The notes: generated by a model from the letters alone, not told the origin. DNA of 64,000 bases from Candidatus Magasanikiibacteriota bacterium (GCA_963802255.1 CAWDHY010000002.1:83984-147983); one strand, 5' to 3'. Positions 7,321 to 61,212 are shown, counted from the first letter of the stretch. Program-made: numbers and translations.

Positions 7321-7357
7321 TAAAAACAGGTTATCGCGAGTATAACCTGTTTTTTGA
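7320..7357. terminator. Rho-independent terminator after the PP2C phosphatase gene
   Basis: AACAGGTTATCGCGAGTATAACCTGTT perfect hairpin flanked by A5 and T6. Confidence 0.7.
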
Positions 7358-7374
7358 ATTTCGTCAAGAGGTCT

Positions 7375-8533: not shown

Positions 8534-8557
8534 TATTATTTTTTATGCTATGATTAT
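8527..8557 (+). promoter_or_regulatory. Candidate sigma70-type promoter for rpmE
   Basis: TTGACA, 16-nt spacer, TATGAT, about 80 nt upstream of the rpmE ATG. Confidence 0.4.
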
Positions 8558-8633
8558 AGCACTTTTAAACATATAAATATAGCATATTTTGACCAAAAAG
8601 TCAATAGTTTCGCTAAAAATACAATAATCTTCT

Positions 8634-8918
8634 ATGAACAAAGATATCCATCCAGAGTTTCATAATGACTGTGTGGTTACCTGCGCCTGCGGGAACACCT
8701 TTAAAACCGGCTCAATATTAAAGGAAATACGTGTAGAACTGTGCAATATGTGCCACCCGTTTTACACCGGAAAACAAAAATTCGTTGATACTGCCCGTCG
8801 GGTGGAAAAATTCCAAGAAAGAGCAGGCAAGCAAACCGCGGCTTCAGCAGAAAGAAAAGGTAAAAAGGTAAAAAAGGCCACTTCTGCGGCAAAAAAGAAA
8901 GCAAAAAAGAACGAATAA
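8634..8918 (+). CDS. rpmE: 50S ribosomal protein L31 (zinc-ribbon form) with a Lys-rich C-terminal extension
   Basis: [27 protein letters not shown]...[12 protein letters not shown] matches L31 with both CxxC pairs. Confidence 0.9.
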
Positions 8919-8925
8919 TCAATAA

Positions 8926-8952
8926 AAACAGGCCAAATTTGGCCTGTTTTCT
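8926..8952 (+). terminator. Rho-independent terminator of rpmE
   Basis: AACAGGCCAAATTTGGCCTGTT hairpin followed by a T-run. Confidence 0.75.
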
Positions 8953-9025
8953 AATATTGACAAATAGCACAAAATGTGCTACGGTTAAGTGCCAATAAAA
9001 ACGTTCATTGACAAAGGAGAAAAAC

Positions 9026-10279
9026 ATGTCGTCGCGTACAGAATCGCTGTCCCGCGGTGACATTTCACTGCGGAAATTAAGGTCAATTAAGAACCATTTC
9101 GCGCTGGCGTCAACAAAATGGATAACACTGGGAAACAGAATATTTTCCATCAGTGACAACAGCGAGAAGGATGAAAATCTGTCCACTCCGAAAAATCGCT
9201 TCGCCAACGACATTGGCTCAATCCTCAAGTCTGAGCAACGCGCCAACCCCGACAGAATAATAACCACATTCGTGTCGGAAATGGGACTTTATCGAAGGGA
9301 CCTCATAGCCCTTACGGAGCGACTCATGCCACAGGCTCTGAGAGAGAAGCTGTGGCCTCTCAGCGAGGATGAAGTTCCAAACGACCCGATAGAACTGCTT
9401 ACGCGAGTCCTTTCAGTTCAATCAGAAGACTCCGTAATTGACCGCGGAACATTTGAAGCGATGCGCGCTCTTGAATTCACCGGGGATTATTTCTTCCTGA
9501 CCACGCAAGTAAACGGGTGGAGGCATGCCGCACCGAAAGCAGACGGCAAAACGCGCGTCACGGATTTTGTGAAATGGCTGAGTGCTGAAGGTGTTATTGA
9601 AGAAAAGAAGCTTGCCATTTATCTTGACCCAAAAGATGAATGGCGATGCGCCGGCGTTGAATTTGACGAACAAGATAAACGACGCCGGAAAAATCACCTT
9701 AAACGCCTTCTGCGCACTGTTGAGGTTCTGAAAATGAAAGCGCTGTTCGGCGACCATGTTCAGGCAATTGTTCAGGCGAGAGCAAAAGACTACATGTCTG
9801 CTTTTGCCAGGCGATTCAGGGACCCACAAGCGCATTTGTTTGAAAGCGTGCCGGACATGTACGGTCTGCGTTTCACCTATCTTGATAAAAAAATGATGAA
9901 AAGAGGTGTGGCGTATCTTGCCGCCCGTGCCGCCATCATCCAAAGTGATGGGTCGGTGAAGAATGTTCAAATTGCGAACCGGCATTCGCACAGAAAACTC
10001 TGCATTCAAAGCCAGTATCTCTATTTGGACGGACGCCGGCGCGAAGTTCAGCACATGCCGGCAAAAAATCTGTACAATATTGAATACTCGCTGGGTCCGG
10101 AAAACCACAGCCTTTACCATTTGCGCTGGTACACAGACTGCCAGTACCCGGGCTTATTCTTTCACCTTTTTCCGCCGGAAATCTACGGCATCAATTGGTC
10201 AGATCCGGTTATCCGACAAGAGATGGAAGCTCACGTCAAGGAGGAAACTCTCCGGAAAATCGAACGAGACCAAACATGA
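9026..10279 (+). CDS. Hypothetical protein with a divergent C-terminal RelA/SpoT-synthetase-like (RSD-like nucleotidyltransferase) region. Locally GC-elevated
   Basis: AAGGAG RBS 6 nt before ATG 9026. Residues about 245-400 contain, in the right order and spacing, RAKDYMSAFAR (compare RxKxxxSxxxK), DMYGLRF (compare DxxGxR) and REVQHM...EYS...HLRWY (compare EVQIRT...EYG..HWRY). Gene GC is about 50% against about 40% for neighbours. The motif assignment is inference. Confidence 0.45.
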   Translation: MSSRTESLSRGDISLRKLRSIKNHFALASTKWITLGNRIFSISDNSEKDENLSTPKNRFANDIGSILKSEQRANPDRIITTFVSEMGLYRRDLIALTERLMPQALREKLWPLSEDEVPNDPIELLTRVLSVQSEDSVIDRGTFEAMRALEFTGDYFFLTTQVNGWRHAAPKADGKTRVTDFVKWLSAEGVIEEKKLAIYLDPKDEWRCAGVEFDEQDKRRRKNHLKRLLRTVEVLKMKALFGDHVQAIVQARAKDYMSAFARRFRDPQAHLFESVPDMYGLRFTYLDKKMMKRGVAYLAARAAIIQSDGSVKNVQIANRHSHRKLCIQSQYLYLDGRRREVQHMPAKNLYNIEYSLGPENHSLYHLRWYTDCQYPGLFFHLFPPEIYGINWSDPVIRQEMEAHVKEETLRKIERDQT

Positions 10280-10348: not shown

Positions 10349-11800
10349 ATGCAACAAAAACAAATTTTACAACATTTGCTTAGAACACTGAAAAAAAACT
10401 GTCCGTCCGAAGATTTAACGGATGTAAAAAGAGCATACGAATTTGTTCGGACGGCCTACGGAGATATGCGACGGGCTTCCGGAAATAAGCAAATTGAACA
10501 TTCTGTAAATGTGGCAACCCTTCTTGCAGAATGGAAACTCTCACCGGATATTATTATCGCCGGATTACTTCATGATATTTTGGAATATTCCAATTATTCA
10601 GAAGATGACATCCGCCAAAAATTCGGACAAAAAATTGCCCGGCTGATTGTCGGTGAAAACCGATTGGATAGCTTAAAATATTGGGGTAAAGAGAGATACG
10701 CGGAAAATTTACGGAGGATGTTCATGGCCATGGCGGAAGACGTCCAAATTATTTTTATTAAATTTGCCGACCGCATTGATAATTTAAAGACGCTCAGCTA
10801 TTTACCGCCGAGAAAACAAGAACGTTTGGCGATGGAAAGCATGCAAATTTATGCCGCCATCGCGAACCGTTTGGGCATGAACAAAATAAAACGGGAACTT
10901 GAAGATTTGTCCTTTTCTTATTTGAAGCCGAAAGAATATGAGGAAATTTTTGAGGTGGTCTCTAATTATTATCATGATGACGGAAAAAGCATGAAAATAA
11001 TTGAAAGTGTCCTGCATGAAGGAGCTAAAACTGCAGGCATTAAAATACTGAATATTGATAACCGGATAAAAAGTTTATACAGTTTGTATGAAAAATTTAA
11101 ATTCCGCAACCGCGACGTAAAAAATGTATATGATATTGCGGCATGCAGGATAATCGTACCGACAATCAGCGATTGTTACGCCATGCTTGGACTGATTCAT
11201 CGCTATTGGAAACCGTTGCCGGGACGCTTTAAAGATTATATTTCCCAGCCAAAACCTAACGGCTACCGGTCTTTGCACACAAATGTATTTTGTGAACGAA
11301 AAGTAGTGGAGTTCCAGGTGCGTACGCCGGAGATGCATGAGGAAGCCGAGTTCGGTATCGCCGCCCATTGGATTTATAAAGAAAAAGAAAAAAATATTAC
11401 GGAAAATATCAGACGGCATACCGTCTGGCTGAAAGAACTGTCGGAAATCCAAATGGAACTGAAAAATAATTTTTCTGTTCCGCAAACAATCCGCTCGGTA
11501 AAAATCGATTTATTTCATAATAGAATTTTCGCCGTGACGCCAAAAGGAGATGTCGTCGACTTGCCCGAGGACGCTACGCCGATTGATTTTGCCTATTCCA
11601 TCCACGCCCAGCTTGGCAATTATTTTCAAAAAGCAAAAGTTAACGGTAAAATTGTACCGATCACGCACAAAATTAAATCAAATGATGTGGTTGAGATTTT
11701 TAAAAATGACAAACCGACGGCAAAAAAATCATGGCTTAAAATTGCGGTGACGAGAAGGGCAAGAAATGAAATCAGGGATTTTTTAAAAATGAAACATTGA
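10349..11800 (+). CDS. rel: Bifunctional (p)ppGpp synthetase/hydrolase, short Rel/SpoT form (HD + synthetase + TGS domains, no ACT domain)
   Basis: HD motif LLHDILEYS. Synthetase motifs [24 protein letters not shown] and [25 protein letters not shown]-terminal TGS-like [27 protein letters not shown]. Ends with a TGA stop. Confidence 0.85.
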
Positions 11801-16275: not shown

Positions 16276-16310
16276 TAAAAAACAAAAACACGGAAAGGCA
16301 GCTTTCCGTG
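16276..16310 (-). terminator. Rho-independent terminator of rplY
   Basis: CACGGAAAG-GCAG-CTTTCCGTG perfect hairpin with a T-run on the minus transcript. Confidence 0.75.
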
Positions 16311-16326
16311 TTTATATTCCAATATA

Positions 16327-17022
16327 TTATTTTTCGTCCTTTTTTTCTTCCGTCTGTCCTTTCGCCTCTTCTGTGGCGTCTCCGTCTTCTTCCGCTTTCT
16401 TTGCGGCCGATGATTCAATCTTGGTAACATCTACCGTAGCGCTTGATTCAGCTTCCATCGCATTAATCTGTTCTTCAGTCAACGCCGGTTGTGCTTTTAC
16501 CACTACGGCGTCAGCTGACGGGTCGATAATATTTAAACCAGCCGGCAAATTTAAATCTGATACTTTTATGGAATGGTCAAAAGTAGCCAAAACAGAGAGA
16601 TCTACATCAATATGGTTAACCAAATCTTTCGGCAAACATTCAACTTCAACTTCCTCAAAATTCTTTACCAGTGTACCGCCCAATTCTTTGATAGCCGGCG
16701 CTTCACCGACAAAGACTAATTCCACATTTGCGGTAATCGGTTTGCTCATATCTATTCTTCGTAAATCGACATGAATCGGCCGGCCCTTAACCGGATCAAA
16801 CTGGACACTGTGAACCAAAACCTTACCGGCGTCTTTATTTTCCACCACCAAATCGATCAAACTGGATTCACCGGCTTCATTATATAATTTTACAAAATCA
16901 GAATAAACAAGAGATAGCGATTCGGCTTCTCCGCCGGCTCCATAGATAACCGCAGGCAAAAGACCCTCGTTTCTGACTTTTTCACCTTTTATTTCACGTT
17001 TTGTAGCAGACAATTTATACAT
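16327..17022 (-). CDS. rplY: 50S ribosomal protein L25/general stress protein Ctc, with an acidic C-terminal tail
   Basis: MYKLSATKREIKGEKVRNEGLLPAVIYGAG...VHSVQFDPVKGRPIHVDLRRI is the canonical L25 sequence. Confidence 0.9.
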   Translation of the reverse strand: MYKLSATKREIKGEKVRNEGLLPAVIYGAGGEAESLSLVYSDFVKLYNEAGESSLIDLVVENKDAGKVLVHSVQFDPVKGRPIHVDLRRIDMSKPITANVELVFVGEAPAIKELGGTLVKNFEEVEVECLPKDLVNHIDVDLSVLATFDHSIKVSDLNLPAGLNIIDPSADAVVVKAQPALTEEQINAMEAESSATVDVTKIESSAAKKAEEDGDATEEAKGQTEEKKDEK

Positions 17023-17023: not shown

Positions 17024-17359
17024 TCACACTTTCTTTATAATTAAATCATTATTTATATATTTTCTTCCTTCAATTAATTCATCAATGTCAAGCGGCTGTA
17101 AAACGTGAAGCCGTTTTGCGTCCTCAAAGTTTAAGTCGCTTACCATGCCAATAGTACTTATTCCTCCCTGCATCACCAAAACCATCGCTATAAAATTTCC
17201 ACGGCATGATTCACAAGAAATGTGCACCAAATTCGCTTTTTCATTTTGCGCAAACAACCTTGCCTTTTCAGGTACATATGCCACGCCGCAAACCGGGCAT
17301 TTATTTATAAATTTTAAGGCTTCCTGCCATGAAAGCCGACCATTTTTTGCCGGGAACAT
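17024..17359 (-). CDS. Hypothetical small zinc-ribbon protein
   Basis: 111 aa with CPVCG...CESCRG paired CxxC motifs. Confidence 0.45.
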   Translation of the reverse strand: MFPAKNGRLSWQEALKFINKCPVCGVAYVPEKARLFAQNEKANLVHISCESCRGNFIAMVLVMQGGISTIGMVSDLNFEDAKRLHVLQPLDIDELIEGRKYINNDLIIKKV

Positions 17360-17437
17360 AAGTGCCGATATACTATATAATTATTGGATTTTTGTCAATC
17401 CCATTTGCATAGAGCCTGTCAAGAAACGGCAAATTGG

Positions 17438-17755
17438 CTATTTATTCGCTTCACCCGCATTTTTTTTGCCCACCTTAACCAAATAATAGCCAATGACAAC
17501 AACAAGGACAGTTATTAATGCCGCATACACAAACTTGGCCAAAATACCTCCCGTTTCCATCGGAAAAAATATGTCAATAAGACCCTTAATTGCTTCATTC
17601 CAGGCTAAACCCGCAACTAAACCAAAAGCAGCCATAATATAGCCAAGTGTTTTTTCTCTGGCTTCACGGCGGATAGATAAACCGTCTTTTTTTAATTCTT
17701 CAATTTTATTATTTTCATTGTCCATATGCTCGGGTGGCGCAGCGAGCATTCTCAC
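17438..17755 (-). CDS. Hypothetical small membrane protein
   Basis: 105 aa with two predicted transmembrane helices (MAAFGLVAGLAWNEAIKGLIDIFF, FVYAALITVLVVVIGYYLV). Confidence 0.45.
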   Translation of the reverse strand: MRMLAAPPEHMDNENNKIEELKKDGLSIRREAREKTLGYIMAAFGLVAGLAWNEAIKGLIDIFFPMETGGILAKFVYAALITVLVVVIGYYLVKVGKKNAGEANK

Positions 17756-17770
17756 TGCGCCAATAATTTT

Positions 17771-19825
17771 TTATTGTAGATCAAACTCTTTAATTTTTTC
17801 CCATTTGCTTTCGTCCAGCACGGTAATATTTTCATTTCCGATCAAATACATGTAATCATCCAGGTAAATAGCCCGCTGCACCTGCGTATCACTTACCGCT
17901 TTTTTGAGTGATAACTCATCATTGTCATATCCAAACACATACCCGCCTTGTCCCCCCGGAATAAAAAATACTTTATGCTTTTCATCTAAAAGAAACGCAT
18001 GATGATTGTTAATAGCTTCGGACCAATACTCGCTTAAAATATATTTTGATGTTTCTTTCGGATTTTCCGGAGAAGTCGCGTCAAAAATCGACAATTTTAC
18101 TTTTCCATCTTCACGCCCAATACCAAGTACCTTGTGATTTCCGAGCGGGTGTAAATATGAAGAGAATCCCGGAATTTTCAGCTCTCCGCGCAGTACGGGA
18201 TTTTTAGGATTAGCTAAGTCTAAAACATAAAATGGATCTGTTTCCCGAAAGGTAACCACATATCCCCGGTCACCCAAAAAGCGCACTGAATAAATACGTT
18301 CGGTTTCGCCTAAATCTTTCACCGACCCAACGACCTTCAAATTATTGTCGAGCACATACACATCACTTACTGTTTTTCCACTGCCGCCAAATCCTCCCAT
18401 TCCCCACCAACGTTCTCCGACTGTCATAGCAACGCGCAAATTCTTTTCGTATTCATCAAGCGAAAATTGGTTAAGTGGATGGCCTGGTACAATCTCGGCA
18501 ATCGCTTTAAAATCATTCAGAGAAATTTTTACTATGCCGGTCATATCCAATTCTCTCCGATGGTTCAAATAAAACTTGTCCATCCGATTGGACATTTCAT
18601 TTTGCATTTTTAGCATATCGTCATTATCAAGCGAATTGGTATATTGTTGCAAAATGGATTGCAATTCTGTTTGTTTTGCATTCGCGCTTAAATCGTATCC
18701 TTTCACCTTGTTAAGGCGTTCCATCACCCAATCCGGCACCAAATCTTTATTTTCGGAGAAGAAATCATAAGCAACTTTTACTGAATCTATCTCTGTCTGA
18801 AAAGTCAGATAAATTGCGTTTTCAGACATATAAAAAACGGTCTGCCCGGATGAACCGACGAAAGCTGTCTTCTTCTCCACTGCTCCGGTCTTGGTATCCA
18901 TTACCAAAAAATTATAGGTAACATCAGCGCCTGAAGCGGAAGTCGGATAATAAATATCAGTACAAGCGATACTAACCTCGTCTTTGCCAACGGTCAGAGG
19001 CACTATCGGACATGGCCTTCCATAATCAACACCACTTTGCGTTGTCAGATAAATTTTATTGTTCATCAAACGGGCGCCAACCAAATTTTCACGGTCGCCC
19101 AATTTGGCAGACCATAATTCTTTCGGGCTGGTTTTATCTGTTACATCATAAGCGTAAATTTTGTTATCACCGGCGAAAACCATCAAAATATTTCCATCCA
19201 GTAAAAGATTCCCATTTTTATCAATCTTGGAATCTTCTTTCATTTCAGCGGGGGGGAATGCGGTAATTAATTTCGTCTCTCCCTGGTTATAGTATGGCGG
19301 GGCAATCATCTTTTCCGCCGAACCGGTCATCGGTGTGGCGCGTAAATATGGATAATATCCGCCAAAACGCGAAAAATATATTTCTTTGCCGTCTGTTTTG
19401 ACAATATCTGGCTCGTCAATACCGGCAACTTGCACATTTGTTTCCGAAACACGGCCTGCCGATGGGGCTGAACTGTCCATGACAGCAGATCCTTTTTCTG
19501 ATATTCCCATTGCTACAGGCTGGGCCATATCTACCGCCATTTCGCGGACGGCAACTCCGCCACCAATACCAAAACTATAATTATTTGTCTGTTGTGAATG
19601 ATCAGCCAGATATTTTTTAAACTCGTCAACAGAAACAAATTTTTTCACTTCCGCTGTTACACCGGATAAATTATCCGCCCCTGAATTTCTTCCAATTATA
19701 CTGTTTTCCAGTACAAATTTTAAGTCACCCCGGGTGGCGGCAAAAACAAGAATCCCCCCGCAAATAACAAAAATCACCGCCAAAATGGCAAAGCCGATTT
19801 TTGTTCCAACTTCTCTGTGAAACAT
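17771..19825 (-). CDS. Membrane-anchored, secreted beta-propeller domain protein
   Basis: 684 aa. N-terminal transmembrane helix, then long extracellular region. C-terminal part (ETDPFYVLDLANPKNPVLRGELKIPGFSSYLHP...) resembles the 'beta propeller domain' family of secreted archaeal/bacterial proteins. Confidence 0.5.
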   Translation of the reverse strand: MFHREVGTKIGFAILAVIFVICGGILVFAATRGDLKFVLENSIIGRNSGADNLSGVTAEVKKFVSVDEFKKYLADHSQQTNNYSFGIGGGVAVREMAVDMAQPVAMGISEKGSAVMDSSAPSAGRVSETNVQVAGIDEPDIVKTDGKEIYFSRFGGYYPYLRATPMTGSAEKMIAPPYYNQGETKLITAFPPAEMKEDSKIDKNGNLLLDGNILMVFAGDNKIYAYDVTDKTSPKELWSAKLGDRENLVGARLMNNKIYLTTQSGVDYGRPCPIVPLTVGKDEVSIACTDIYYPTSASGADVTYNFLVMDTKTGAVEKKTAFVGSSGQTVFYMSENAIYLTFQTEIDSVKVAYDFFSENKDLVPDWVMERLNKVKGYDLSANAKQTELQSILQQYTNSLDNDDMLKMQNEMSNRMDKFYLNHRRELDMTGIVKISLNDFKAIAEIVPGHPLNQFSLDEYEKNLRVAMTVGERWWGMGGFGGSGKTVSDVYVLDNNLKVVGSVKDLGETERIYSVRFLGDRGYVVTFRETDPFYVLDLANPKNPVLRGELKIPGFSSYLHPLGNHKVLGIGREDGKVKLSIFDATSPENPKETSKYILSEYWSEAINNHHAFLLDEKHKVFFIPGGQGGYVFGYDNDELSLKKAVSDTQVQRAIYLDDYMYLIGNENITVLDESKWEKIKEFDLQ

Positions 19826-19906
19826 ATGATTTAATTAATTACTTAAAATAATTTTTATGTATTAATAACGTTTTAGCAGAAAAAAAGTGACTAATAACGT
19901 TTGAAA

Positions 19907-22900
19907 CTATTGCCGGCCGGACTGACTTCCGCCTCTTAACACATCCATGGCTATTTTATACTCTGCTGTTGTTTCATCGTTTGAGCCCATCATATAAGAA
20001 TTACTCTTATACAAATGATCAACATCCGCCAGGGCGTTTGCTTCTTGCGGTGTATCTAATATACCAACGACACCTTCAATTTTGTAATGAATCTTTTCGC
20101 CGTCATACAAATACTCAACATTGTTATATGAAGTACGCACACCCGGCTCCAATGTTTCCCGTAAAGCAGTCATTCTTTCATAAAAATTTCCACCCTTTTC
20201 AAAAAATCTGTTAAAACCAATTGACTTGTGCTCGGTTTCACTTAACACATCTTCTTGTTGTGGCGCAATTTTAGACGCTCCCGCCGTTACTTCTTCTTTC
20301 GCTATTTGCGACTGGGCCCTCCTTACTATTTCTTCATATGTTTTTGGTTCATCCTGTCCCGATGCTTCAGTAGCAGACGAAACGGCCGTCGTTGTTTCGG
20401 CTACTGCAATCGGTTTATCATAACCTACCTCGTCCAAAAATTTCTTTTCAAACATTTCATCCGGGTGCGCTCCGGCTGACTGACTGGCATCACGTATTGA
20501 AGCGTGCAAACTGTTTAATATTGCCTGACGCTCATCAATATCACTTGTCTGTTTCAACGCTTCATTAAAAACACTGACTCTGACTAACTCATTCTTCATT
20601 ACCCAGTCATCTATTTTTGTACCCCAGTTGAAACCAACATTTACCTTTATTGTTCCACTATCCTCATCAATATAATCCGGTATAAAATCTTTTTTTACAA
20701 TGCCGTTGTGTGACAAATTAACATCATATTCTTCATAAAGCCGCTGAGTAGCCGGAGATACATTTAATTTGTTAGCCCACAATCCGGTATTTTCTTGATC
20801 GAAACCAATTCTTACACCATCGTAAACTACTATTTCCGGCTTTCCCCCCACCCATTCTGTCACATCAACCCGATGAATTTTACTTCCATCCGACAATTCA
20901 TACACCGGTCCGCGTTCTCTAGCCTGCATTCTATAAGCCATAGCATCATCATAATCTTCATTTCTCACCAACCTTTCATATTCCGCCTGTTCAGCGTCAG
21001 TCATAAATATCGGCTGACCGGTTTTGGCGTCAATCAGTTCCTGCACCGGGTCTACTTTGTCTCCGGTTTCGGCAACAGATTCCTCAGCCAATTCAGCCGG
21101 CGGTTTGGGAATTTCTCTGTATAATCTACCGCCCACATCAACACTACCATCTTTATGCAATACAAGAAACTGCGGACGGTCTTCATGAAATACAAAATAT
21201 TTATCAGCTAAGCCCTGCTGTTGAGCAATTACGCTTGCTTCATGGCCGGCCCAGCGTTGAATTGACTGTTGATCATTAAGGTCACCTTCGTAACCAAAGG
21301 CTTCAGGGTTAATTTTTAATTGCCTTTGAAGCACTCTCTCCAGCCCGTCTCCTTTATGAATTTGCGTTGATTCAAATATCTCTTGTGGCGAATGGCCGTT
21401 CATAATGGCCTGAGAAAATTCCGTTATTGCTTCCGGCCGTCCGTTTGCCAGAGCAAGCACATTGTCCATGGCTGATATTTCTTCCGGTGTAATTCCTCCT
21501 TCGGCCAGCTGCTGAAGAGCCATTAAACTTACACCGGCTCCTTCAAGCTGCCCAAATTTTGTGACCGCCTGATTCAACTGGTCCGGATCCATTTCCGCTG
21601 ATTCCAAATGAAATTTTTGTAAAATAGCCATTTCCGGAGAAATTCCATGTCCGCCACTTTCCGCTGACACGATATGCTCTTCCATTACAGGCGCATGAGT
21701 GGCTTCACCTCCAAAACGACTTGAAATTGTATCTATCGGGTGGGAATAAAACTGTATTGTTCTCTCGGCATTTGTAATAAAATCGTCTTTGATGGCACAA
21801 GTTATACCCTGCTGCTCAATTTTACTGATAAACGCTTGAAGTGTATCAGCCGGAGACATCGAATCTGTAAGCGCCAAGCCGTATATGCCAAATCCTCTGG
21901 CAACAGTTCCAACAGCACGCATAAAATCGATTACCCTGCCCGTACCTTTTGTTTCCTTTTTTGCGCCCATAAATACCAGACTGCGGGCAGTTTCAACAGC
22001 CGCATTAACCGTTAAATCCTTTAGTACATACCCGGCTTTTGACTCCGGTGACGTCTCTTCTTCAGAGGTTCGGCCGGATTTTTTCTTTTCAAATTCCCGT
22101 TCGGATTTGAGCATCCGCTCACCCACTGACATAGCCGCATAAACCGCTCCACGTACCATAGACATCCCGGTAGCGGTTAGAGCAGTATTTAATAAATCCT
22201 TTGCCAGTGTCATGCCGGATACCTTATTTTTCATGTAAACCTTAAGAAGCGATTCAACTTTTTTATCGCGATCCTTTTCCGCGTCTTTGGCGGACGAAGA
22301 ATATTCCGTGGCAATACGCTGTAAATTTTTTAATATCGCCGCTTTATCTTTTGCGTCAATATGGGTTGAATTATCAATTTTTTCTTTCAGAGCGCCTATT
22401 TTCTCCTCAATTTGCCCGTTAGTATCAAAAACTTCTTTCATTACTTCACCAATACTTCCCTTTTCAGCTTTCATTTCACGTGCGCTAAGGCGCATTTTAT
22501 GAATATCGCCAAAGCCAAATTCCTTTTTGAATGCTCCTGTTAAGGCACCAACCATATCAGTAGCGGTTTTTATACCGAACACCGAGGTAACCGTTTTATA
22601 TGCGACGTCAACGGCAATTTTACCGGTTTCCTTATTGGCCACAATACCAATTTTTTCTTTTGTCCTTTGCCACCACGATTTTTTTACCTCTTCTTCCGGC
22701 TCTAAAACCTGCCCGCCTTCTTTTTCTGCCGTTGTTCCGGTTCGATTTGCCTCCGTATCATTTCTCCACGGCGTTGCTTTTGGGTCAGCCATCAACCATT
22801 CATAGGCGACATTCATTTCATATAAACGGTATTCAAATATGTCAAGCGACTCCTGAATAAAATGTCCGGGAGTTTTCTGATTAACCATTTTTTTCTTTTC

Positions 22901-24418
22901 CGCTTTTATTACGGCCGGACTAATTATTTTTTCGGCGACGATTTTCTTCTCCTGAGCAAATTTAGCCTTAATTTTTTTTAAATCTTTGGAAAACTCTTCA
23001 AAAAATCGTGGATACTTTTCCTTTACCGATTCTATTTTTTTCTGATAACCAGCAATTATCGTTTCCACCCTTTGCACATATGCTTCCATTTGCGTTTCAT
23101 ACGATTCTTCAACATTGTCCGGTTCATTAATTATTTTTTCTTTCTTACTTCCCTCGCTTTCTCCCCCCGCTTCCCCATTCCCGCTTTCTTCCCCCGATTC
23201 CCCATTCCCGCTTTCTCCTTTATTATCATCAGACACTGCTGCCACCGGCTTCTCTGATTCTTTCTCAGGATTCCATTCTTCAAATTCTTTAACTGTGACG
23301 GTTTTAACCAAAAAGTGATCACGGACTGGATCGACAATTTTTCGCACAATAATATCAAGGCCATCCGGAGTGCGCTCTACAATTTCCCAACCATCTTCCA
23401 TCTCACCTGAAGATCGTTTTATTTTTATATATTGCTTTTTATCATTCTCCGGGGTCTTAGAAGGTTCATTAACAGCCGACTCTTCAATAGCATTAGCCTG
23501 AGAAATTAACGGTTTGTTGATTTCTTTTTGTTCAGCTTTCTTTTTTCTTTTCTCTTTTTTATTAATTATTTCTTTATCCTCTTTTTTTACGACTTCTTCT
23601 TTAATCTCCGGAGAGGATTCAATTTTTAGCGCTTCTCCTTCGAGTGCAAACAGATGTTCTAACTTTTTTAACTTTTCATATCGCGGACCCCACTTCATTT
23701 TATGAGCTGATGATTTATCCTTAAACAATTCGGCAAAACTTAAATGCTGTCTGAGTTTAGTCAAAACATTATTTATTGCCAACTGTTCTCTCTCTTCACT
23801 AAATAATTTTTCACCGCTTAAGATTCTTGATAGTACGCCCTTCTCGGCGTCATCACCGGCCTCCGGTCTGTCAGAGAGCAGCTCTTGCGTATAATAATCA
23901 TAGATTGTCTGAAGGTCCTGCCTAGAAATTTCATTTTCAGGTTTCTTCTTTTCTTTCTTTATACTTTCGTCTAATAACGATTTTTCATTTAATACACTGT
24001 CAATTTCTTCTTTTAATTGACTAAACCTTTCTCTAACATTGCTCATTTTTTGCTTCCATTCGTCAATTCTCGTTTGAAAATGCTGGATTTCGATATTGCC
24101 AGACTCATCTTCAGCGTGTGCACCTACTGACTGAATTTCTTTTAATAACCTATCTAAAACTTCTTGCTGTTCCTTGAGACCGCTTATCCGATTTTCTTCA
24201 ATTACCCTCTGATATTGATCAATCTGTTTTTCCAGTTCATCGGCTGTAGCATAAGCTTCCCGCGACAATGAGCGCGCTTCCTGCCTCTTCTGGCCGCTTT
24301 CGCTTGTATCCAGATCTAATAACGCGTTTTCAATACTCGCTTGAACGTCAGAATCACCGGGCGCATTACCACCCTCTGCATCAGAAAATTTATTGACTCT
24401 TCCGCGTTTGTGCGCCAT
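19907..24418 (-). CDS. Giant orphan protein (about 1503 aa), coiled-coil and low-complexity rich, no signal peptide
   Basis: Continuous ORF. Probable start at MAHKRGRV (24418). Long Lys/Glu coiled-coil stretches and a GESGNGESGEESGNGEAGGESEGS low-complexity segment. No recognisable catalytic motif. Confidence 0.6.
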   Translation of the reverse strand: MAHKRGRVNKFSDAEGGNAPGDSDVQASIENALLDLDTSESGQKRQEARSLSREAYATADELEKQIDQYQRVIEENRISGLKEQQEVLDRLLKEIQSVGAHAEDESGNIEIQHFQTRIDEWKQKMSNVRERFSQLKEEIDSVLNEKSLLDESIKKEKKKPENEISRQDLQTIYDYYTQELLSDRPEAGDDAEKGVLSRILSGEKLFSEEREQLAINNVLTKLRQHLSFAELFKDKSSAHKMKWGPRYEKLKKLEHLFALEGEALKIESSPEIKEEVVKKEDKEIINKKEKRKKKAEQKEINKPLISQANAIEESAVNEPSKTPENDKKQYIKIKRSSGEMEDGWEIVERTPDGLDIIVRKIVDPVRDHFLVKTVTVKEFEEWNPEKESEKPVAAVSDDNKGESGNGESGEESGNGEAGGESEGSKKEKIINEPDNVEESYETQMEAYVQRVETIIAGYQKKIESVKEKYPRFFEEFSKDLKKIKAKFAQEKKIVAEKIISPAVIKAEKKKMVNQKTPGHFIQESLDIFEYRLYEMNVAYEWLMADPKATPWRNDTEANRTGTTAEKEGGQVLEPEEEVKKSWWQRTKEKIGIVANKETGKIAVDVAYKTVTSVFGIKTATDMVGALTGAFKKEFGFGDIHKMRLSAREMKAEKGSIGEVMKEVFDTNGQIEEKIGALKEKIDNSTHIDAKDKAAILKNLQRIATEYSSSAKDAEKDRDKKVESLLKVYMKNKVSGMTLAKDLLNTALTATGMSMVRGAVYAAMSVGERMLKSEREFEKKKSGRTSEEETSPESKAGYVLKDLTVNAAVETARSLVFMGAKKETKGTGRVIDFMRAVGTVARGFGIYGLALTDSMSPADTLQAFISKIEQQGITCAIKDDFITNAERTIQFYSHPIDTISSRFGGEATHAPVMEEHIVSAESGGHGISPEMAILQKFHLESAEMDPDQLNQAVTKFGQLEGAGVSLMALQQLAEGGITPEEISAMDNVLALANGRPEAITEFSQAIMNGHSPQEIFESTQIHKGDGLERVLQRQLKINPEAFGYEGDLNDQQSIQRWAGHEASVIAQQQGLADKYFVFHEDRPQFLVLHKDGSVDVGGRLYREIPKPPAELAEESVAETGDKVDPVQELIDAKTGQPIFMTDAEQAEYERLVRNEDYDDAMAYRMQARERGPVYELSDGSKIHRVDVTEWVGGKPEIVVYDGVRIGFDQENTGLWANKLNVSPATQRLYEEYDVNLSHNGIVKKDFIPDYIDEDSGTIKVNVGFNWGTKIDDWVMKNELVRVSVFNEALKQTSDIDERQAILNSLHASIRDASQSAGAHPDEMFEKKFLDEVGYDKPIAVAETTTAVSSATEASGQDEPKTYEEIVRRAQSQIAKEEVTAGASKIAPQQEDVLSETEHKSIGFNRFFEKGGNFYERMTALRETLEPGVRTSYNNVEYLYDGEKIHYKIEGVVGILDTPQEANALADVDHLYKSNSYMMGSNDETTAEYKIAMDVLRGGSQSGRQ

Positions 24419-24425
24419 ATTAAAA

Positions 24426-24608
24426 TTAATTAATTTTTTCAATTATTTTTGAAATATTCCGCAATTTTGTCTCATCTAAAAAACGAGTTATATCTCGGCG
24501 GATATCCCCTCCTTCATGTGCGAGCGCCAACAACTCACCATCCACTTCATTGATTAAATAGCGCAATCGTTCTAAACGCTCCCGGTATTTTGTATTTTTT
24601 TCCTCCAT
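24426..24608 (-). CDS. Hypothetical 60-aa protein
   Basis: Tightly packed ORF between the giant gene and the 110-aa ORF. Confidence 0.3.
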   Translation of the reverse strand: MEEKNTKYRERLERLRYLINEVDGELLALAHEGGDIRRDITRFLDETKLRNISKIIEKIN

Positions 24609-24615
24609 AAATTAT

Positions 24616-24948
24616 TTATTCCGGGCTACTGACTCTTTTGTCTAAATCTTCTAAATCATTGAGTGCTTTTTTTTGTATATCTGCCATATCGGCGCTGTAT
24701 TTTTCCGCCACATCCGTCAACCCCTGCTGAAGCGCATTGTCCGCTTGCCTTCCGGAATGTGCAAGATAATTTGTTTCCATTGCTGAAAGTAACACACCAA
24801 GCTGACTGGTGCTCATCTCCGGCAATAATTTAAGAATTTGTTCCTTTTCTTCATCAGGTAAATTTAGAGCGGCGATAAGAAATCCGATTCTTTTTCCCTT
24901 TTCAACAGCCGCTTTCTGGTCATTGTTTAATTTAATTTCTTGAACCAT
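24616..24948 (-). CDS. Hypothetical 110-aa protein
   Basis: ORF packed between the cyclase gene and the 60-aa ORF. Confidence 0.35.
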   Translation of the reverse strand: MVQEIKLNNDQKAAVEKGKRIGFLIAALNLPDEEKEQILKLLPEMSTSQLGVLLSAMETNYLAHSGRQADNALQQGLTDVAEKYSADMADIQKKALNDLEDLDKRVSSPE

Positions 24949-24982
24949 ATATTAATTTCTTTTAAAAAACAATTCCTGATAA

Positions 24983-26737
24983 TTAAAAATCAATAGTAAA
25001 TATATTTATTGGCTCTGCCCGCCCTTTTACCTGCGCACTACCAAGCGACCGCCAGTTATAATCACCCGTCGCCCTGTTTTTAACAATTTCACCGACGATA
25101 ATTTTTGTTTTATATTCTTTATTTAGTCCTTCAAGGCGAGAGGCTACATTAACCGTATCACCCATAACCGTATAATTTAATCTCAATTCGGAACCCATAT
25201 TGCCTACCACCGCCGGACCGGTATATAGTCCGATGCCAATATTGATAGGATCTTTGCCTTCTTTGGCAAATTCAGCATTCAATTCTTCCAGTTTTTTGAG
25301 CATGGTCACAGATGCCTGCAGGGCATGGTCTACCTGGTCGGGGTCGTCGATTGGCGCTCCCCAAAAAGCCATTATCGCATCACCGATATATTTATCCAAT
25401 ACGCCCTTGTGCTCCAAAACTTGCTCAGTCATGGCAGTGAAATAACGGTTTAAAATCTGCACCAATTTAACCGGGGGTGTCTTTTCCGACAATGTGGTGA
25501 AACTTCGGATATCGGAAAAGAAAACCGTAATCTCTTTTTCTTCTCCGCCCAGTCTCACCTTTGACGGGTCATCAACAATCTTTTTCACAACCTCCTTGGA
25601 AACATAGCGGGAAAAAATATCTTTTAATTGATGTTTTTCTTTTTCTCCGACAAAATAGCGATAGCCGAATAACGCAATAACTGAAAAGACCCAGGCTAAG
25701 GTCAGATGAATAATGTTTGCGGCCAAACCATTTTGGAATAAATAAATTACTATAAAAATTTGAGCGATGCCGATAAAAAAACTGGCCACTACCGCCCAGC
25801 GCAGACGACGAAAAAAACCGAAAAATAAAGCGGGTAAAAACGCCGCAAAAATTATCCATAAAGCATTATATGCTTTTGGCATCGGTGCAATGCGATATCC
25901 CTTGAGAATCATATTCGCAATATTTGCCTGCAATTCTACCCCGGGCATGTCATTTTCGCGACCAAAAGGGACAATTCTATTATCATGCAGGTCGGGCGCA
26001 GTCACCCCGAGAAAAACAATTTTATCTTTAACCAAATCTCCGGCTCCCTCTTCCATTAAACGCCAAAAAGGAATCATCCGTACTGACCCGGCGGGTGCGG
26101 CGAAAACAATTTTATTCACCAAATTTAACGTTGCCGCCTGCGGAATATCGGACCCGCTTTGTGCGACGGTTTCATACGCAATTGATTTATATATTTTTCC
26201 GCTTTGCCGACCGCGCACTTCCAGGGGAAATTTTCTGGCCACGCCATCTTTATCCACTATTATATTTACCTGTCCAAGCGATACACGCGGCGCGTTTAAA
26301 AGAACCCCAAGTGGTTCAATAAAAAAATCAGCCATCGGCAAATCTTCTTTTGAAAGAAAAAGATTATTTGCTTCCACTGAAAGAACCACCGGAAAATCTA
26401 TTTTTTCCAACTGGTCGCCGAGCAGAGCATCATCTTTTTCTCCATATCGCGACGGTTCTGCAAATAAAATATCAAAACCCATGGCGCGCGGAGGTGATTC
26501 GTTGATTTTTTGTAATGCTTCGGCAAAAACACTGCGTGGCCATGGCCATTGACCAATTTTCTGAAGCGACTCATTGTCTATGGCAATAATAACGAGACGG
26601 CTATCAATTTGCTTGTTCGAAAACAACAGATCTTCAAAAAAGTTTTCTGGCCCCGAAAAAATGCCGCGCCAAAAAAACCAGGCAAATAAAACCCCGACAA
26701 TTAAGCCAATCGGCGCGTAAAAATATTTCACTCTCAT
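24983..26737 (-). CDS. CHASE2-domain sensor with class III adenylate/guanylate cyclase
   Basis: N-terminal transmembrane helix, periplasmic CHASE2-like region, transmembrane segments, then cyclase domain: ITVFFSDIRSFTTLSEK...KYIGDAIMAFWGAP...GIGLYTGPAVVGNMGS...YTVMGDTVNVASRLE. Confidence 0.85.
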   Translation of the reverse strand: MRVKYFYAPIGLIVGVLFAWFFWRGIFSGPENFFEDLLFSNKQIDSRLVIIAIDNESLQKIGQWPWPRSVFAEALQKINESPPRAMGFDILFAEPSRYGEKDDALLGDQLEKIDFPVVLSVEANNLFLSKEDLPMADFFIEPLGVLLNAPRVSLGQVNIIVDKDGVARKFPLEVRGRQSGKIYKSIAYETVAQSGSDIPQAATLNLVNKIVFAAPAGSVRMIPFWRLMEEGAGDLVKDKIVFLGVTAPDLHDNRIVPFGRENDMPGVELQANIANMILKGYRIAPMPKAYNALWIIFAAFLPALFFGFFRRLRWAVVASFFIGIAQIFIVIYLFQNGLAANIIHLTLAWVFSVIALFGYRYFVGEKEKHQLKDIFSRYVSKEVVKKIVDDPSKVRLGGEEKEITVFFSDIRSFTTLSEKTPPVKLVQILNRYFTAMTEQVLEHKGVLDKYIGDAIMAFWGAPIDDPDQVDHALQASVTMLKKLEELNAEFAKEGKDPINIGIGLYTGPAVVGNMGSELRLNYTVMGDTVNVASRLEGLNKEYKTKIIVGEIVKNRATGDYNWRSLGSAQVKGRAEPINIFTIDF

Positions 26738-26739
26738 AA

Positions 26740-27900
26740 TTACCTCAGTAAAATAATTGGCAATGTAAGCGTGGTGGTGACCGACTGAATGACCGGAGCA
26801 GCTGCGCCAACAATTGGCGACAGAGTGGCGCCTGACACATCGGGTGAGGTAGTTTCAGTGTCAATTAGCGCTGCCGCTTCATCATCTAATAACGGGGATG
26901 ATGTTTGAATATCAGTAGGCGCTGTAGGTCCTGGCTCTACCAGCGGCGAACTGGTATTTGACTGTGTAATATTATTTAAAGAAGGATTAATCACACGCGG
27001 CAACATTCCTGATTGGCGCAATTTAAGCAATAACAACCGACGACGCTCTATCAGATCCAGCCGTATAATTCTTTTTATTTCAATATTTTCAACTCCTTTT
27101 TCGCGTAGCGCTTCAATTTTCCTATTCAACAGTTGATCAGCCGCCATTGCCCTTTTAACCCAGAGACGCAACGTGATATCATCTCCGGCGGCATCACGAA
27201 CTATTCCCTCCAGCATCACGCGGCGTAATCGCAAATCTGCCAATGTCTGTTTTTTTATAGATAATATTTTTTTAGCGGTAACCGGCGCACGCCCGAGTGA
27301 TTCACCGGTTGATTCATCTAACGCTTCAACTTCGACTGTATTTTCAGAACCGATTATTTGAGTTTCTTCATCGTTGTATTCCATACCAAAAGCCGTGCCT
27401 CGAACAGAAGCGACCGCGTTGTTCGTTTTAACTTCCCAATATGATTCTGGTGTAGCAAGTTCAATTATCTTTGACCAAACACGACCGGCAGCAAGCTGAA
27501 TTTTTACTTTCAAAGAATCGCTATCTTCAATGTAATCAGCCTGCTCAAATGTAATTTCAGAATCTGAATCAAGCTGAACCGAAGAACCATCCGGCATGTG
27601 GATATCCGCCAAACCTGTTGAGTCCGTTGAGATAACACTTCCATTAGAAATTTCATCGCCGGTCTGCAATTCTTGCCAGCCGTCTTCAGCTTTTATCCTG
27701 ACCTTTCCGTTTATTACTTCTATCCAGGGACGAGCAGTCGATTCATCGGTGAATATATCAACATTTTCTTCATTGTTCTGTGACAAAGACTGCTCTCCAT
27801 TAGCAATTTTTTCAGCCGGCTTCCTATATTGATCGGCCAGATAGAGAAACCCGAAAACCACAGCTGCCACGACAATAATCCCGTATATATATTTTGACAT
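26740..27900 (-). CDS. FecR-domain protein, membrane anchored
   Basis: N-terminal transmembrane helix. FecR-like region containing VRGTAFGMEY. Sits immediately upstream of the CHASE2 cyclase, a recurrent pairing. Confidence 0.65.
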   Translation of the reverse strand: MSKYIYGIIVVAAVVFGFLYLADQYRKPAEKIANGEQSLSQNNEENVDIFTDESTARPWIEVINGKVRIKAEDGWQELQTGDEISNGSVISTDSTGLADIHMPDGSSVQLDSDSEITFEQADYIEDSDSLKVKIQLAAGRVWSKIIELATPESYWEVKTNNAVASVRGTAFGMEYNDEETQIIGSENTVEVEALDESTGESLGRAPVTAKKILSIKKQTLADLRLRRVMLEGIVRDAAGDDITLRLWVKRAMAADQLLNRKIEALREKGVENIEIKRIIRLDLIERRRLLLLKLRQSGMLPRVINPSLNNITQSNTSSPLVEPGPTAPTDIQTSSPLLDDEAAALIDTETTSPDVSGATLSPIVGAAAPVIQSVTTTLTLPIILLR

Positions 27901-27993
27901 ATAATCTTATTTATTAATGCTTACATTATACCAGAAATGGCATTTTTTTCAAGCTATGTATCCGTACAAAAAATACTTAAAATATATAAATAA

Positions 27994-28090: not shown

Positions 28091-28309
28091 ATGAAAAGAA
28101 AAAGACAGAGTAATGAACCGGAAAATGTCACCAACTTGTTTGATGACATGAGTGAGGAAGAAGGCAGAGAAGACGACGAGCACGATGGAAGGGACCCAGA
28201 GTACCAAGACGATTGCGAAGTCAATCTCGAGGACGAAATTCCAGATGCCAACTGGGACGAATGGGGAGAGGAAGACCCGTCGGCATATGACGACGGACCC
28301 CTCTATTGA
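28091..28309 (+). CDS. Hypothetical extremely acidic 72-aa protein
   Basis: AGGGGG RBS. Product MKRKRQSNEPENVTNLFDDMSEEEGREDDEHDGRDPEYQDDCEVNLEDEIPDANWDEWGEEDPSAYDDGPLY, roughly 40% Asp/Glu. Local GC about 52%. Confidence 0.5.
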   Translation: MKRKRQSNEPENVTNLFDDMSEEEGREDDEHDGRDPEYQDDCEVNLEDEIPDANWDEWGEEDPSAYDDGPLY

Positions 28310-28387
28310 GGGTAAAGCTCCGGTATCTCTCATCCTCGTATACACTTTTTCGGTCAAAACCGATTCACAAAATAATCCGCTCTTTAT

Positions 28388-28419
28388 CAGCCCCCAAATC
28401 TCCCTGGGGGCTTTTCTTA
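28388..28419 (+). terminator. Rho-independent terminator of the acidic-protein gene
   Basis: AGCCCCCA-AATCTCCC-TGGGGGCT hairpin plus TTTTCTTATT. Confidence 0.7.
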
Positions 28420-33751: not shown

Positions 33752-34124
33752 TGTCATTCTGAGCGAAGCGAAGAATCCCTTAACTCCATTCTTCACTCAA
33801 ATCTTTCCACTGTGGATTAACAGTTTTTATCAAATTTGCCTTTTTCATCCTCAACCAGCCCTTTATTGTTTTTTCTCTCGCAATCGCATTATTTATGTCA
33901 GAAAAATATTCATAGTATACTAATCTTTTGCAACCATATTTTTTTGTAAATCCCTCAATCAAACCCTGCTTATGTTCGGAAATGCGTCGTTCCAAATTGT
34001 TGGTGACGCCAACATAAAGCGTACCGGTAGCGCTTGACAAAATGTATACGTAAAAATTGTAATTCCGCATATTTTTACGCAAGGGATCCTTCAGTCGCCC
34101 TTTTAGGACTCCCTCAGGATGACA
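33752..34124. mobile_element. Putative small mobile element: a GIY-YIG nuclease gene bounded by inverted TGTCATYCTGAG...CTCAGGATGACA repeat arms of the same family as the MITE-like repeats elsewhere in the window
   Basis: Left arm 33752..33779 tgtcattctgagcgaagcgaagaatccc abuts the ORF stop. Right arm 34082..34124 agggatccttcagtcgccc...ctccctcaggatgaca is the reverse-complement version, 11 nt upstream of the ORF start. Confidence 0.5.
33780..34070 (-). CDS. Small GIY-YIG nuclease family protein (YhbQ/COG2827-like)
   Basis: MRNYNFYVYILSSATGTLYVGVTNNLERRISEHKQG is a GIY-YIG motif. The start is taken at the internal Met (34070), because the upstream in-frame extension lies inside the repeat arm. 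Confidence 0.7.
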   Translation of the reverse strand: MRNYNFYVYILSSATGTLYVGVTNNLERRISEHKQGLIEGFTKKYGCKRLVYYEYFSDINNAIAREKTIKGWLRMKKANLIKTVNPQWKDLSEEWS

Positions 34125-34202
34125 TGGTGAACGATAGCCAAAAGCCCCGGCATCTTGCGATACTAGGGGGTCATAAAACAATACCTATATTTTCTCACAC
34201 TG

Positions 34203-61000: not shown

Positions 61001-61212
61001 CGCGGAATCAGTTAGATGATTGTTTGAACCAAAAACCGCGTTATATTGAGCGCTGGGGCTTAACAGTGAAGAACCAATGGTATTACCAAGACCTGTGATG
61101 ATTGAATAATATGCAGATGAAGTGTTCACCGCTCCGAACACCGCATTACCGGAACCGGCATCTTTATTTGATTCACCAGCAATAAAAGATGTGTAACCTG
61201 ATGCTAAATTAT

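Follow-up and report, generated by a model that had tools for sequence, protein, structure and literature searches.

Does a row of closely packed, co-directional genes form one functional module when the surrounding genome is packed in the same way? The question is raised by eight minus-strand genes at positions 17,024 to 27,900 of a 64,000-nucleotide (nt) stretch of DNA, here called the window, from Candidatus Magasanikiibacteriota bacterium (GCA_963802255.1 CAWDHY010000002.1:83984-147983). In the order of reading they encode a FecR-domain protein, a class III cyclase with a CHASE2 sensor domain, two small proteins of 110 and 60 amino acids (aa; s110 and s60), a 1503-aa protein (the giant), a beta-propeller protein, a DUF5654 small membrane protein and a zinc-ribbon protein; rplY follows. 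The original prediction, made from the sequence alone, was of a single signal-controlled envelope or attachment module containing an orphan giant. We arrive at a different reading, which we hold to be fairly probable together with the family and partner assignments given below: the row brings together, in one lineage, four units that evolve separately, in a genome with nearly all genes packed head to tail.

Packing of the gene row

The window has a low G+C content (about 41%) and is filled almost throughout with housekeeping genes, among them scpA, an asnS/aspS-type tRNA ligase gene, gap, tsf, rpsB, relA/spoT, prfA and prmC, and further uvrABC, groESL, yidC, nusA, comEC and leuS. Its nearest database relatives are metagenome-assembled genomes of Candidatus Magasanikbacteria (Patescibacteria, or candidate phyla radiation, CPR). 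Rfam and tRNA scans of the window gave no match. All eight minus-strand open reading frames (ORFs) predicted between 27900 and 17024 were present, and the domain calls made earlier for the FecR, CHASE2 and class III cyclase, beta-propeller, small membrane and zinc-ribbon proteins all hold. The row is 10.9 kb long and ends as predicted, with rplY and a terminator with a 12-bp stem. From the FecR gene through rplY the successive gaps are 2, 34, 7, 7, 81, 15, 78 and 1 nt. Most of them thus fall near the 2 to 40 nt that had been claimed, but two, of 78 and 81 nt, are clearly longer.

Same-strand gaps in the whole window have a median of 15 nt, and 70% of them are 40 nt or shorter. About 22 functionally unrelated minus-strand genes lie in one run at 29.5-61.5 kb; no convincing intergenic minus-strand terminator was found in the 20 kb of this neighbouring run that was scanned, and recognisable promoters precede nusA and groES within it. 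The packing of the row is not above chance for this genome. Short gaps, co-directionality and absence of terminators are the genome default, and the packing of the row therefore carries no functional information.

Presence and absence of the row genes in related loci

We inspected 18 distinct loci that encode a giant. In 15 of them (the window, L001, L003, L006-L011, L014-L016, L018, L020 and L021) the giant has a conserved central region, the type-A core; in the other three (L017, L022 and L023) a different central region, type B, takes its place. Seven loci, including the window, are syntenic. Six share a wider frame, uvrC ... rplY-DUF3048-prmC-PMT_2-RF1, as far as their contigs reach, and L015, a short contig, has the same local gene order.

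If the row were one module, the FecR/CHASE2 pair would sense an outside cue and cyclic AMP (cAMP) would control the giant and the extracellular propeller. In line with this, L001, L015 and L017 again show cyclase-small-small-giant-propeller in that order, at cyclase identities as low as 73%, and the neighbours are envelope proteins. The conserved gene order that had been proposed as a check was therefore found, but it is embedded in 25 kb of general synteny shared by the same loci, and so adds no information. Linkage of all eight genes is not conserved beyond that synteny, parts being lost in L006, L022, L023 and L001.

The s110-position gene, s60 and the giant are present in all seven syntenic loci, and the zinc-ribbon gene with rplY in the six whose contig reaches that far. 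FecR, cyclase, propeller and DUF5654 are each present or absent independently within the shared frame. Upstream of the cassette (s110, s60 and giant), FecR and cyclase genes are found in L001 and L017, a cyclase gene in L015, and a cyclase gene without FecR in L023; L022 has neither, with DUF5684 and DUF5661 instead, and L006 has a Band_7 gene in the cyclase position. Downstream of the giant there is a propeller gene in L001 (without DUF5654), L015 and L022, propeller and DUF5654 genes in L006 and L017, and no propeller gene in L023. DUF5654 is likewise missing from L022 and L023, and is thus optional. Against the single module, L022 has cassette and propeller without cyclase or FecR, and L023 has cyclase and cassette without FecR or propeller. 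Moreover, in 10 non-syntenic loci of other Patescibacteria, s110 and giant occur without cyclase, FecR, propeller or other genes of the row from outside the cassette. Only in one lineage is the cassette tied to cAMP signalling and to the propeller, and even there the tie is repeatedly broken.

Rates of divergence also set the cassette apart. Between the window and L001, identities are 92% for the zinc-ribbon protein, 89% for the cyclase, 87% for the propeller, 87% for rplY and 66% for FecR, and 62%, 59% and 55% for s110, s60 and the giant. The cassette, at 55-62% against 87-92% for its neighbours, diverges much faster and is therefore under a different evolutionary regime. Across the relatives the cyclase is 69-89% identical (L001, L015, L017 and L023); L022 has no such gene, and L006 has none in the slot immediately before s110. 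FecR falls to 45% in L017 and is absent in L022 and L023. The propeller is 62-87% identical in L001, L006, L017 and L022, and absent in L023 and all non-syntenic loci; a scan of a genome collection with this protein gave only one close relative, which had already been found. The zinc-ribbon protein is 59-92% identical in L001, L006, L017, L022 and L023, where its gene always lies directly upstream of rplY.

Promoters and transcription

The FecR start codon is preceded, at a distance of 25 nt, by a strong promoter-like site. Sites scoring at least 10/12 precede FecR (window, L001 and L017) or cyclase (L023 and L015) in all five loci examined. A further site of at least 10/12 lies between the cyclase gene and the small gene in L001, L015 and L017, and none was found there in the window. 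Before the propeller gene there is no promoter-like site in the window or in four of five relatives, and a weak one (9/12) in L006. The gap between giant and propeller (19826-19906, 81 nt) contains the direct repeat AACGTTATTA twice, 18 nt apart; neither a promoter nor a terminator was matched there.

The 78-nt spacer before the zinc-ribbon gene (17360-17437) contains TTGACA-17-TAGTAT followed by ATCGGCACTTATG. TTGACA, TAGTAT and the leader ATCGGCACT are conserved in the non-coding DNA of the window, L001 (counterpart at 16783-16902), L006, L017 and L022. The arrangement TTGACA-17-TAGTAT-ATCGGCACTT-ATG is kept nearly base for base across these five genomes, in which the proteins are 60-90% identical. 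This conservation points to a promoter for the zinc-ribbon gene and rplY, which are coupled by their 1-nt gap, with a leader of only about 6 nt.

As the original prediction had it, no terminator was found inside the row until after rplY. The question of a single transcription unit thus has a mixed answer: one strong upstream promoter and no internal terminator, together with a conserved internal promoter before zinc-ribbon-rplY. Most likely the promoter at 27952-27925 reads FecR, cyclase, s110, s60, giant, propeller and DUF5654, and that at 17398-17370 most likely reads the zinc-ribbon gene and rplY, stopping at the terminator. Co-transcription from FecR through DUF5654 is plausible in this genome on the basis of these predicted signals.

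These signals bear on the single module in both directions. The strong promoter before FecR, the run without terminators until after rplY and the absence of promoter-like sites before s110 and the propeller in the window are what it would lead one to expect. The sites between cyclase and small gene in L001, L015 and L017 would, however, give the cassette a promoter of its own, and neither the giant nor the 64-kb window yielded a cyclic nucleotide monophosphate (cNMP)-binding or GAF domain or any other cAMP receptor that could be recognised. With one promoter, no terminator and a recurring order on one side, and parts that drop out independently on the other, the signal-controlled envelope or attachment module is weakly supported, and we regard it as unlikely.

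Divergent from the FecR gene is a 72-aa ORF (28091-28412, plus strand), which belongs to no family and is also called in two Logan contigs. It is followed by a strong terminator of its own (28389-28412).

The giant protein defines a large family

The giant is identical to database protein P0001. At the level of BLAST it is the orphan that it had been called: a word-indexed search of 5.8 billion proteins with the full-length giant returned two homologues, P0002 (55% identity over the full length) and P0003 (28%, central part). Alignment of the three proteins showed a well-conserved centre at residues ~574-910. At the level of profiles it is not an orphan. A HMMER profile of residues 560-1503 from the three proteins was searched against 1.84 billion cluster representatives. 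It matched 322 proteins at a threshold of E<=1e-3; 203 of these remained at E<=1e-10, and 65 at E<=1e-30. A word-indexed search with a 29-sequence core alignment gave no matches, probably because words rich in K and E swamp the list of 8000 candidates; giant proteins of this composition are likely to be under-detected by such searches. A metagenome scan with an eight-sequence alignment yielded eight loci.

Family members are 900-2400 aa long. None of those checked has an N-terminal signal peptide or anchor, and none of the 35 scanned has a Pfam domain. Scans of the giant itself in Pfam, PHROG, NCBIfam and PADLOC gave no match. A hydropathy scan confirmed that it lacks a signal peptide, as predicted, and found no transmembrane (TM) segment. 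Its description as a coiled-coil protein applies to one part, since heptad-like segments lie mostly in the N-terminal ~560 residues and the rest consists of a helical-bundle core and small alpha/beta domains. The architecture is thus a charged coiled-coil N-terminus (residues 1-~560), the type-A core, a second module (module 2) and variable C-terminal domains.

The type-A core, of ~340 aa, was found in 142 of 151 listed relatives with a hidden Markov model (HMM) made from three core sequences, and lies 10 to 1300 residues from the N-terminus across the family. Its motifs are YKTxTSxxGxKxxTD, GDI, KVSGxxIAKDALNTALTATGxxxLRGxxYA, ETARxL and DFxKAxGTVARGFGI, which the window giant carries at residues 570-919. 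The core is basic (isoelectric point, pI, 8.8), all-alpha, amphipathic and rich in Gly, Ala, Ser and Thr, and the remainder of the giant is acidic. Module 2, with the motif VHKGDGxERxLQRQLxxxPExFGxxGD...WAGHEA, usually follows the core and is common to type-A and type-B giants.

AlphaFold 2 (AF2) modelled the core, from 29 sequences, as an all-helical domain of 14 helices, with a predicted local distance difference test score (pLDDT) of 77.6 and a predicted template modelling score (pTM) of 0.66. Residues 920-1503 were modelled as a string of small domains, alpha/beta or helical and predicted with confidence, with disordered linkers between them (pLDDT 76.6, pTM 0.42), the module 2 part reaching a pLDDT of about 90. 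Structure prediction, proposed earlier as a check on this protein, produced models of a helical core and alpha/beta domains, but no significant fold match in the PDB. A Foldseek search of the PDB with the core and 920-1503 models returned nothing significant, the best hit being the F-BAR domain of FCHO2 (E=0.059, template modelling score 0.13), and PDB sequence profiles for the core, the C-terminal part and s110 gave noise only.

Named family members come from Magasanikbacteria, Komeilibacteria and the 'Patescibacteria group'; one metagenome-assembled genome is labelled Udaeobacter. No relevant paper came up in a literature search on DUF5663, DUF5654, PF09826, giant CPR proteins and cAMP in Patescibacteria. 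The giant thus defines a large family, mainly from Patescibacteria, that is unannotated in the four libraries searched and has no detectable relative of known function or fold. As the family is invisible to BLAST-level and Pfam annotation, its members are filed as thousands of unrelated 'hypothetical proteins'. Patescibacteria genomes are tiny, yet each inspected locus gives 3-7 kb to a giant, and the family is present in every lineage sampled. Recognising it provides a core domain and a second module, both defined, together with two small proteins as cognate partners and a rule linking partner and core that predicts an interaction.

Two small partners and their co-variation with the giant

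All 15 distinct type-A loci encode an s110 homologue upstream of the giant, either next to it or with only small ORFs between. The s110 protein is acidic (pI 4.8), and both it and s60 are helical. An s60-type ORF lies between s110 and giant in the window, L001, L006, L014, L015 and L016. In L018 and L021 a small ORF occupies the s60 slot and scores weakly against the s60 model, and s60 is absent in L003, L007, L008, L010, L011 and L020; no fusion of s60 into the giants of loci without it was found. Neither s110 nor s60 matched Pfam, PHROGs, NCBIfam or PADLOC.

The type-B loci show what happens to the partners when the centre of the giant is exchanged. Their giants occupy the same syntenic slot (L017 7467-12524, L022 4482-9500, L023 7461-13076) and share module 2 and the C-terminus with the window giant at 38-47% identity; over the central ~450 residues they carry another conserved region instead, which includes hydrophobic, TM-like segments. 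Each of the three loci has, in place of s110, an upstream gene for a ~108-aa protein of Pfam family DUF5663 (PF18908). The L022 and L023 proteins are annotated DUF5663, and the L017 protein scores 24.1 against a cut-off of 23.7. An HMM of s110 scores the type-B DUF5663 proteins at E~0.007, and s110 searched against DUF5663 gave no match at E<=1. The s60 family is kept: an HMM built from type-A loci only matches the type-B small ORFs in L022 (1e-16), L017 (1e-8) and L023 (5.5e-6). Thus the centre of the giant and the small partner are replaced together. That the partner changes with the central domain supports a physical interaction between s110 and the core, and suggests that s110 may bind the core as an adaptor, assembly factor or chaperone. 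By the same reasoning we infer that s60 would bind a part common to both core types.

Small acidic helical proteins encoded immediately upstream of a large protein, with gaps of 1-8 nt, are also what would be expected of secretion chaperones. The main alternative to the scaffold role proposed below is accordingly that the giant is an effector, exported or injected into a host by a non-Sec route, with s110 and s60 as its chaperones and an arms race driving the domain swaps. The giant has no signal peptide, diverges fast and is variable at both termini; its central domain is replaced together with the partner between otherwise syntenic genomes; and its helices, rich in small residues and resembling buried hairpins, recall membrane-inserting toxins. 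Against this, Pfam, NCBIfam and PADLOC detected no toxin, enzyme, LXG, WXG100 or secretion-signal domain, there is no secretion ATPase gene near any inspected locus, and no variable immunity-like gene consistently follows the giant. The cassette also occurs once per inspected locus, at a fixed chromosomal position beside housekeeping genes. We consider such an effector quite unlikely.

Two small ORFs followed by a long helical protein without signal peptide, with helices rich in small residues, also recall a phage tape-measure protein preceded by two small assembly chaperones of the G/GT kind, and hence a prophage remnant. There was no PHROG match, however, and no relative was found in 2.9 million viral contigs or, by tblastn, in 50,697 phage genomes. 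No other phage gene was seen in about 20 loci, and the cassette keeps its position between housekeeping genes. As the PHROG, viral-contig and phage-genome searches were all empty, a phage origin of the cassette was rejected; we regard it as extremely improbable.

Neighbours of the cassette

Membrane proteins are frequent neighbours of the cassette, among them Band_7, a Wzz-like protein and a TM protein that matches PDZ weakly. In another clade of Patescibacteria a conserved trio of genes lies upstream of it, in L003 (at 7075-9662), L007, L008, L011, L016 and L020, and in part in L010. The trio encodes a multi-TM protein of ~270 aa rich in Trp, a TM protein of ~350 aa with a weak PDZ match and a Wzz-like protein of ~203 aa. 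Homologues of the trio were not found in the window. In two contexts unrelated to each other, L006 (219-959) and L018 (5945-6823), the gene immediately upstream of the cassette is of the Band_7/SPFH kind, and a weak Band_7-like protein is encoded upstream of it in L014 (7462-8856). The cassette may therefore have a deeper association with membrane-microdomain (Band_7) proteins.

The absence of an export signal, the basic amphipathic core, the TM-like segments at the equivalent place in type-B giants and the membrane-protein neighbours lead us to favour a role for the giant as a membrane-proximal cytoplasmic scaffold. This is a tentative assignment, possible rather than probable. A more specific version is speculative, and we think it doubtful: the cassette would be a membrane-associated cytoplasmic apparatus specific to Patescibacteria, for instance a scaffold at the envelope or at host-contact sites, whose centre and partner are exchanged as a unit and which in the lineage of the window has come under a promoter controlled by an extracellular signal and cAMP.

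The FecR and CHASE2 cyclase pair

A FecR-domain gene beside a CHASE2 sensor gene is a described recurrent arrangement (PMC5192318), and CHASE2 cyclases are already known, for example Sinorhizobium CyaD1 (PMC5498481). The first of these reports and the 2-nt gap between the two co-directional genes here support the original view of a recurrent pair, which is also found in L001 and L017; the L023 cyclase has no FecR. From hydropathy, the FecR protein has an N-terminal TM anchor, the extracytoplasmic FecR domain, a tail rich in Pro, Ser and Thr and a hydrophobic C-terminal end. It shows partial similarity to the Leptospira Lsa33/LipL45 models, far below the cut-off. The cyclase is laid out as one TM segment, CHASE2, three TM segments and the catalytic domain; the CHASE2 match spans residues 15-301, and hydrophobic segments lie at 3-29 and 288-363.

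Among solved structures the catalytic domain comes closest to OaPAC and bPAC, two photoactivated adenylate cyclases (E=6e-37), with which FFSDI, K(Y/F)IGD and YT(V/I)xGDxVNVAxRLE align. The cyclase sequences FFSDI, KYIGD and GDTVNVASRLE match the same OaPAC motifs, so that what we take, from established knowledge of class III cyclases, to be both metal-binding Asp residues and the Asn/Arg transition-state residues are intact. In class III cyclases a Lys and an Asp/Thr pair specify adenine, and Thr marks subclass IIIb. The Lys of DKYIGD and the Thr of NYTVMGD align with the K and T of OaPAC and bPAC. As this adenine-specifying pair is kept, the protein should be a IIIb adenylate cyclase, with cAMP as its expected product. 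We conclude that the signalling pair is an ordinary further member of the known FecR/CHASE2 kind.

A cNMP-binding effector, which the original prediction had suggested looking for, did not appear: no cNMP-binding domain was found among the ORFs scanned in the 64-kb window. This also bears on a Pycsar-like anti-phage system, in which the cyclase would be the sensor and a neighbouring gene the effector. The catalytic domain does match PADLOC PycC models (best E=1e-31), but that match is limited to the catalytic domain generic to class III, and the Lys/Thr pair and best PDB relatives are those of adenylate cyclases. In addition, the protein has CHASE2 as an extracytoplasmic sensor, neither a cNMP-binding domain nor a PADLOC match was seen in any neighbour, and the gene, 69-89% conserved, keeps a fixed syntenic site instead of lying in a variable island. 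Because of the adenylate-cyclase specificity residues and the lack of a neighbouring cNMP-binding domain, Pycsar was rejected, and we hold it to be very improbable.

The window also encodes a PP2C-type phosphatase (7375-8337, minus strand) and a full-length RelA/SpoT protein with HD, synthetase and TGS domains (10349-11800, plus strand). This small genome thus keeps several signalling systems besides cAMP.

A proposed composite row

The organization that we propose is as follows. The first unit, FecR and the CHASE2-class IIIb cyclase, would be a transmembrane sensor pair that makes cAMP on an extracytoplasmic cue. The second would be the three-gene cassette, in which the giant cytoplasmic protein acts as a membrane-proximal scaffold, s110 binds its core as adaptor or chaperone, and s60 binds the part shared by both core types. 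The third would be the membrane-anchored extracytoplasmic PF09826 propeller, with or without DUF5654, and the fourth the zinc-ribbon protein with rplY under their own conserved promoter. Units one to three are probably read from the FecR promoter in this genome; their co-expression would be incidental, not a conserved functional coupling.

Several points weigh against this organization. The window has no promoter-like site between cyclase and s110, so that expression of the cassette probably depends on the FecR promoter. The cyclase adjoins the cassette in five of seven syntenic loci and with both core types, and a functional link within that lineage is conceivable. The co-variation of partner and core rests on only three type-B loci of one lineage, which are not phylogenetically independent, and only 15 type-A and three type-B loci were inspected out of 322 family representatives. 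Finally, the giant matches no characterised protein significantly in fold or in sequence, and its role as a scaffold is one that we infer. More generally, in scanning genomes of this kind only presence/absence variation within a syntenic frame tells real units from neighbours.

Features of the locus and of the rest of the window

The features of the row and its boundaries are collected in Table 1. The propeller protein covers positions 2-492 of the 495 of the PF09826 profile and, as predicted, is membrane-anchored and extracellular, with a single N-terminal hydrophobic anchor by hydropathy. The 111-aa zinc-ribbon ORF had no family match in the library scan.

Table 1. Genes, domains and predicted transcription signals of the row (window coordinates)
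Feature	Position	Strand	Evidence
FecR-domain protein, 386 aa	26740-27900	-	PF04773 E=1.6e-15
CHASE2 + putative class IIIb adenylate cyclase, 584 aa	24983-26737	-	PF05226 E=2.7e-46, PF00211 E=9.6e-26
s110, 110 aa	24616-24948	-	No family; homologues upstream of giants
s60, 60 aa	24426-24608	-	No family; own HMM
Giant, 1503 aa, 169 kDa	19907-24418, from ATG	-	Profile family
Giant type-A core, residues 570-919	21662-22711	-	Conserved motifs
Giant module 2, residues 976-1207	20798-21493	-	Conserved motif, alpha/beta
Beta-propeller protein, 684 aa	17771-19825	-	PF09826 E=1.3e-105
DUF5654 small membrane protein, 105 aa	17438-17755	-	PF18898 E=1.3e-19
Cys4 zinc-ribbon protein, 111 aa	17024-17359	-	CPVCG...CESCRG
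rplY (L25/Ctc), downstream boundary gene	16327-17022	-	PF01386 + PF14693
Sigma-70-like promoter of FecR (predicted)	27925-27952	-	TTGAAA-16-TG-TATAAT, 11/12
Zinc-ribbon + rplY promoter (predicted)	17370-17398	-	TTGACA-17-TAGTAT
Intrinsic terminator after rplY	16286-16313	-	12-bp stem + T tract

Elsewhere in the window, a 3217-aa ORF (51659-61312, minus strand) has YadA-head repeats, a Peptidase_S74 (endosialidase-chaperone) domain and beta-roll matches. It is flanked on the same strand by a collagen-repeat protein (61213-63051) and two Lcl_C-domain proteins (49896-51329 and 63302-63991), and the G+C content rises to 0.52 at 50-52 kb. The segment 49896-63991 looks like a surface-fibre or adhesin cluster, and as such a better candidate for 'attachment' than the gene row. 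Between uvrA and uvrB there is a 133-aa ORF of the GIY-YIG/T5orf172 type (33780-34181, minus strand), possibly a free-standing gene of the homing-endonuclease kind.

Comparison with known systems

The Burkholderia 'BiofilmReg' operon likewise has a FecR-domain gene directly upstream of a CHASE2 TM sensor gene (PMC5192318). There the sensor is a histidine kinase that works with a response regulator; the expected output in the window is cAMP. The FecR protein of the window lacks a LysM domain, and in the relative L023 FecR is dispensable. In joining a CHASE2 sensor to a class III cyclase output the window protein resembles Sinorhizobium CyaD1 (PMC5498481). Its catalytic domain aligns with those of OaPAC (5x4t), bPAC (5m27) and CyaC (1wc0) at E=6e-37 and shares their catalytic residues, but it is regulated by an extracytoplasmic CHASE2 domain and four TM helices, where the solved relatives have BLUF or PAS domains.

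The DUF5654 and Beta_propel proteins of the window are clear members of their families, and DUF5663 occupies the s110 slot only in type-B loci. To our knowledge, none of these three families has a known function. For the giant, a comparison may be drawn with large helical scaffolds in the cytoplasm of wall-less or minimal bacteria, such as the Mycoplasma HMW2-type coiled-coil proteins, and with the helical-bundle arrays of talin and alpha-catenin at eukaryotic adhesion sites, but the giant shows neither sequence homology to these nor a significant global fold match. The cassette differs from the effector-chaperone, LXG-Lap and tape-measure types in having no LXG/WXG100 domain, no toxin or phage homology and no secretion or tail genes nearby, and in its fixed housekeeping neighbourhood. 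In gene order it is like effector-chaperone, LXG-Lap and tape-measure plus G/GT cassettes, all of which have one or two helical proteins of ~60-110 aa encoded just upstream of a long helical one, and it has in common with them that a partner co-varies with one domain of the large protein.

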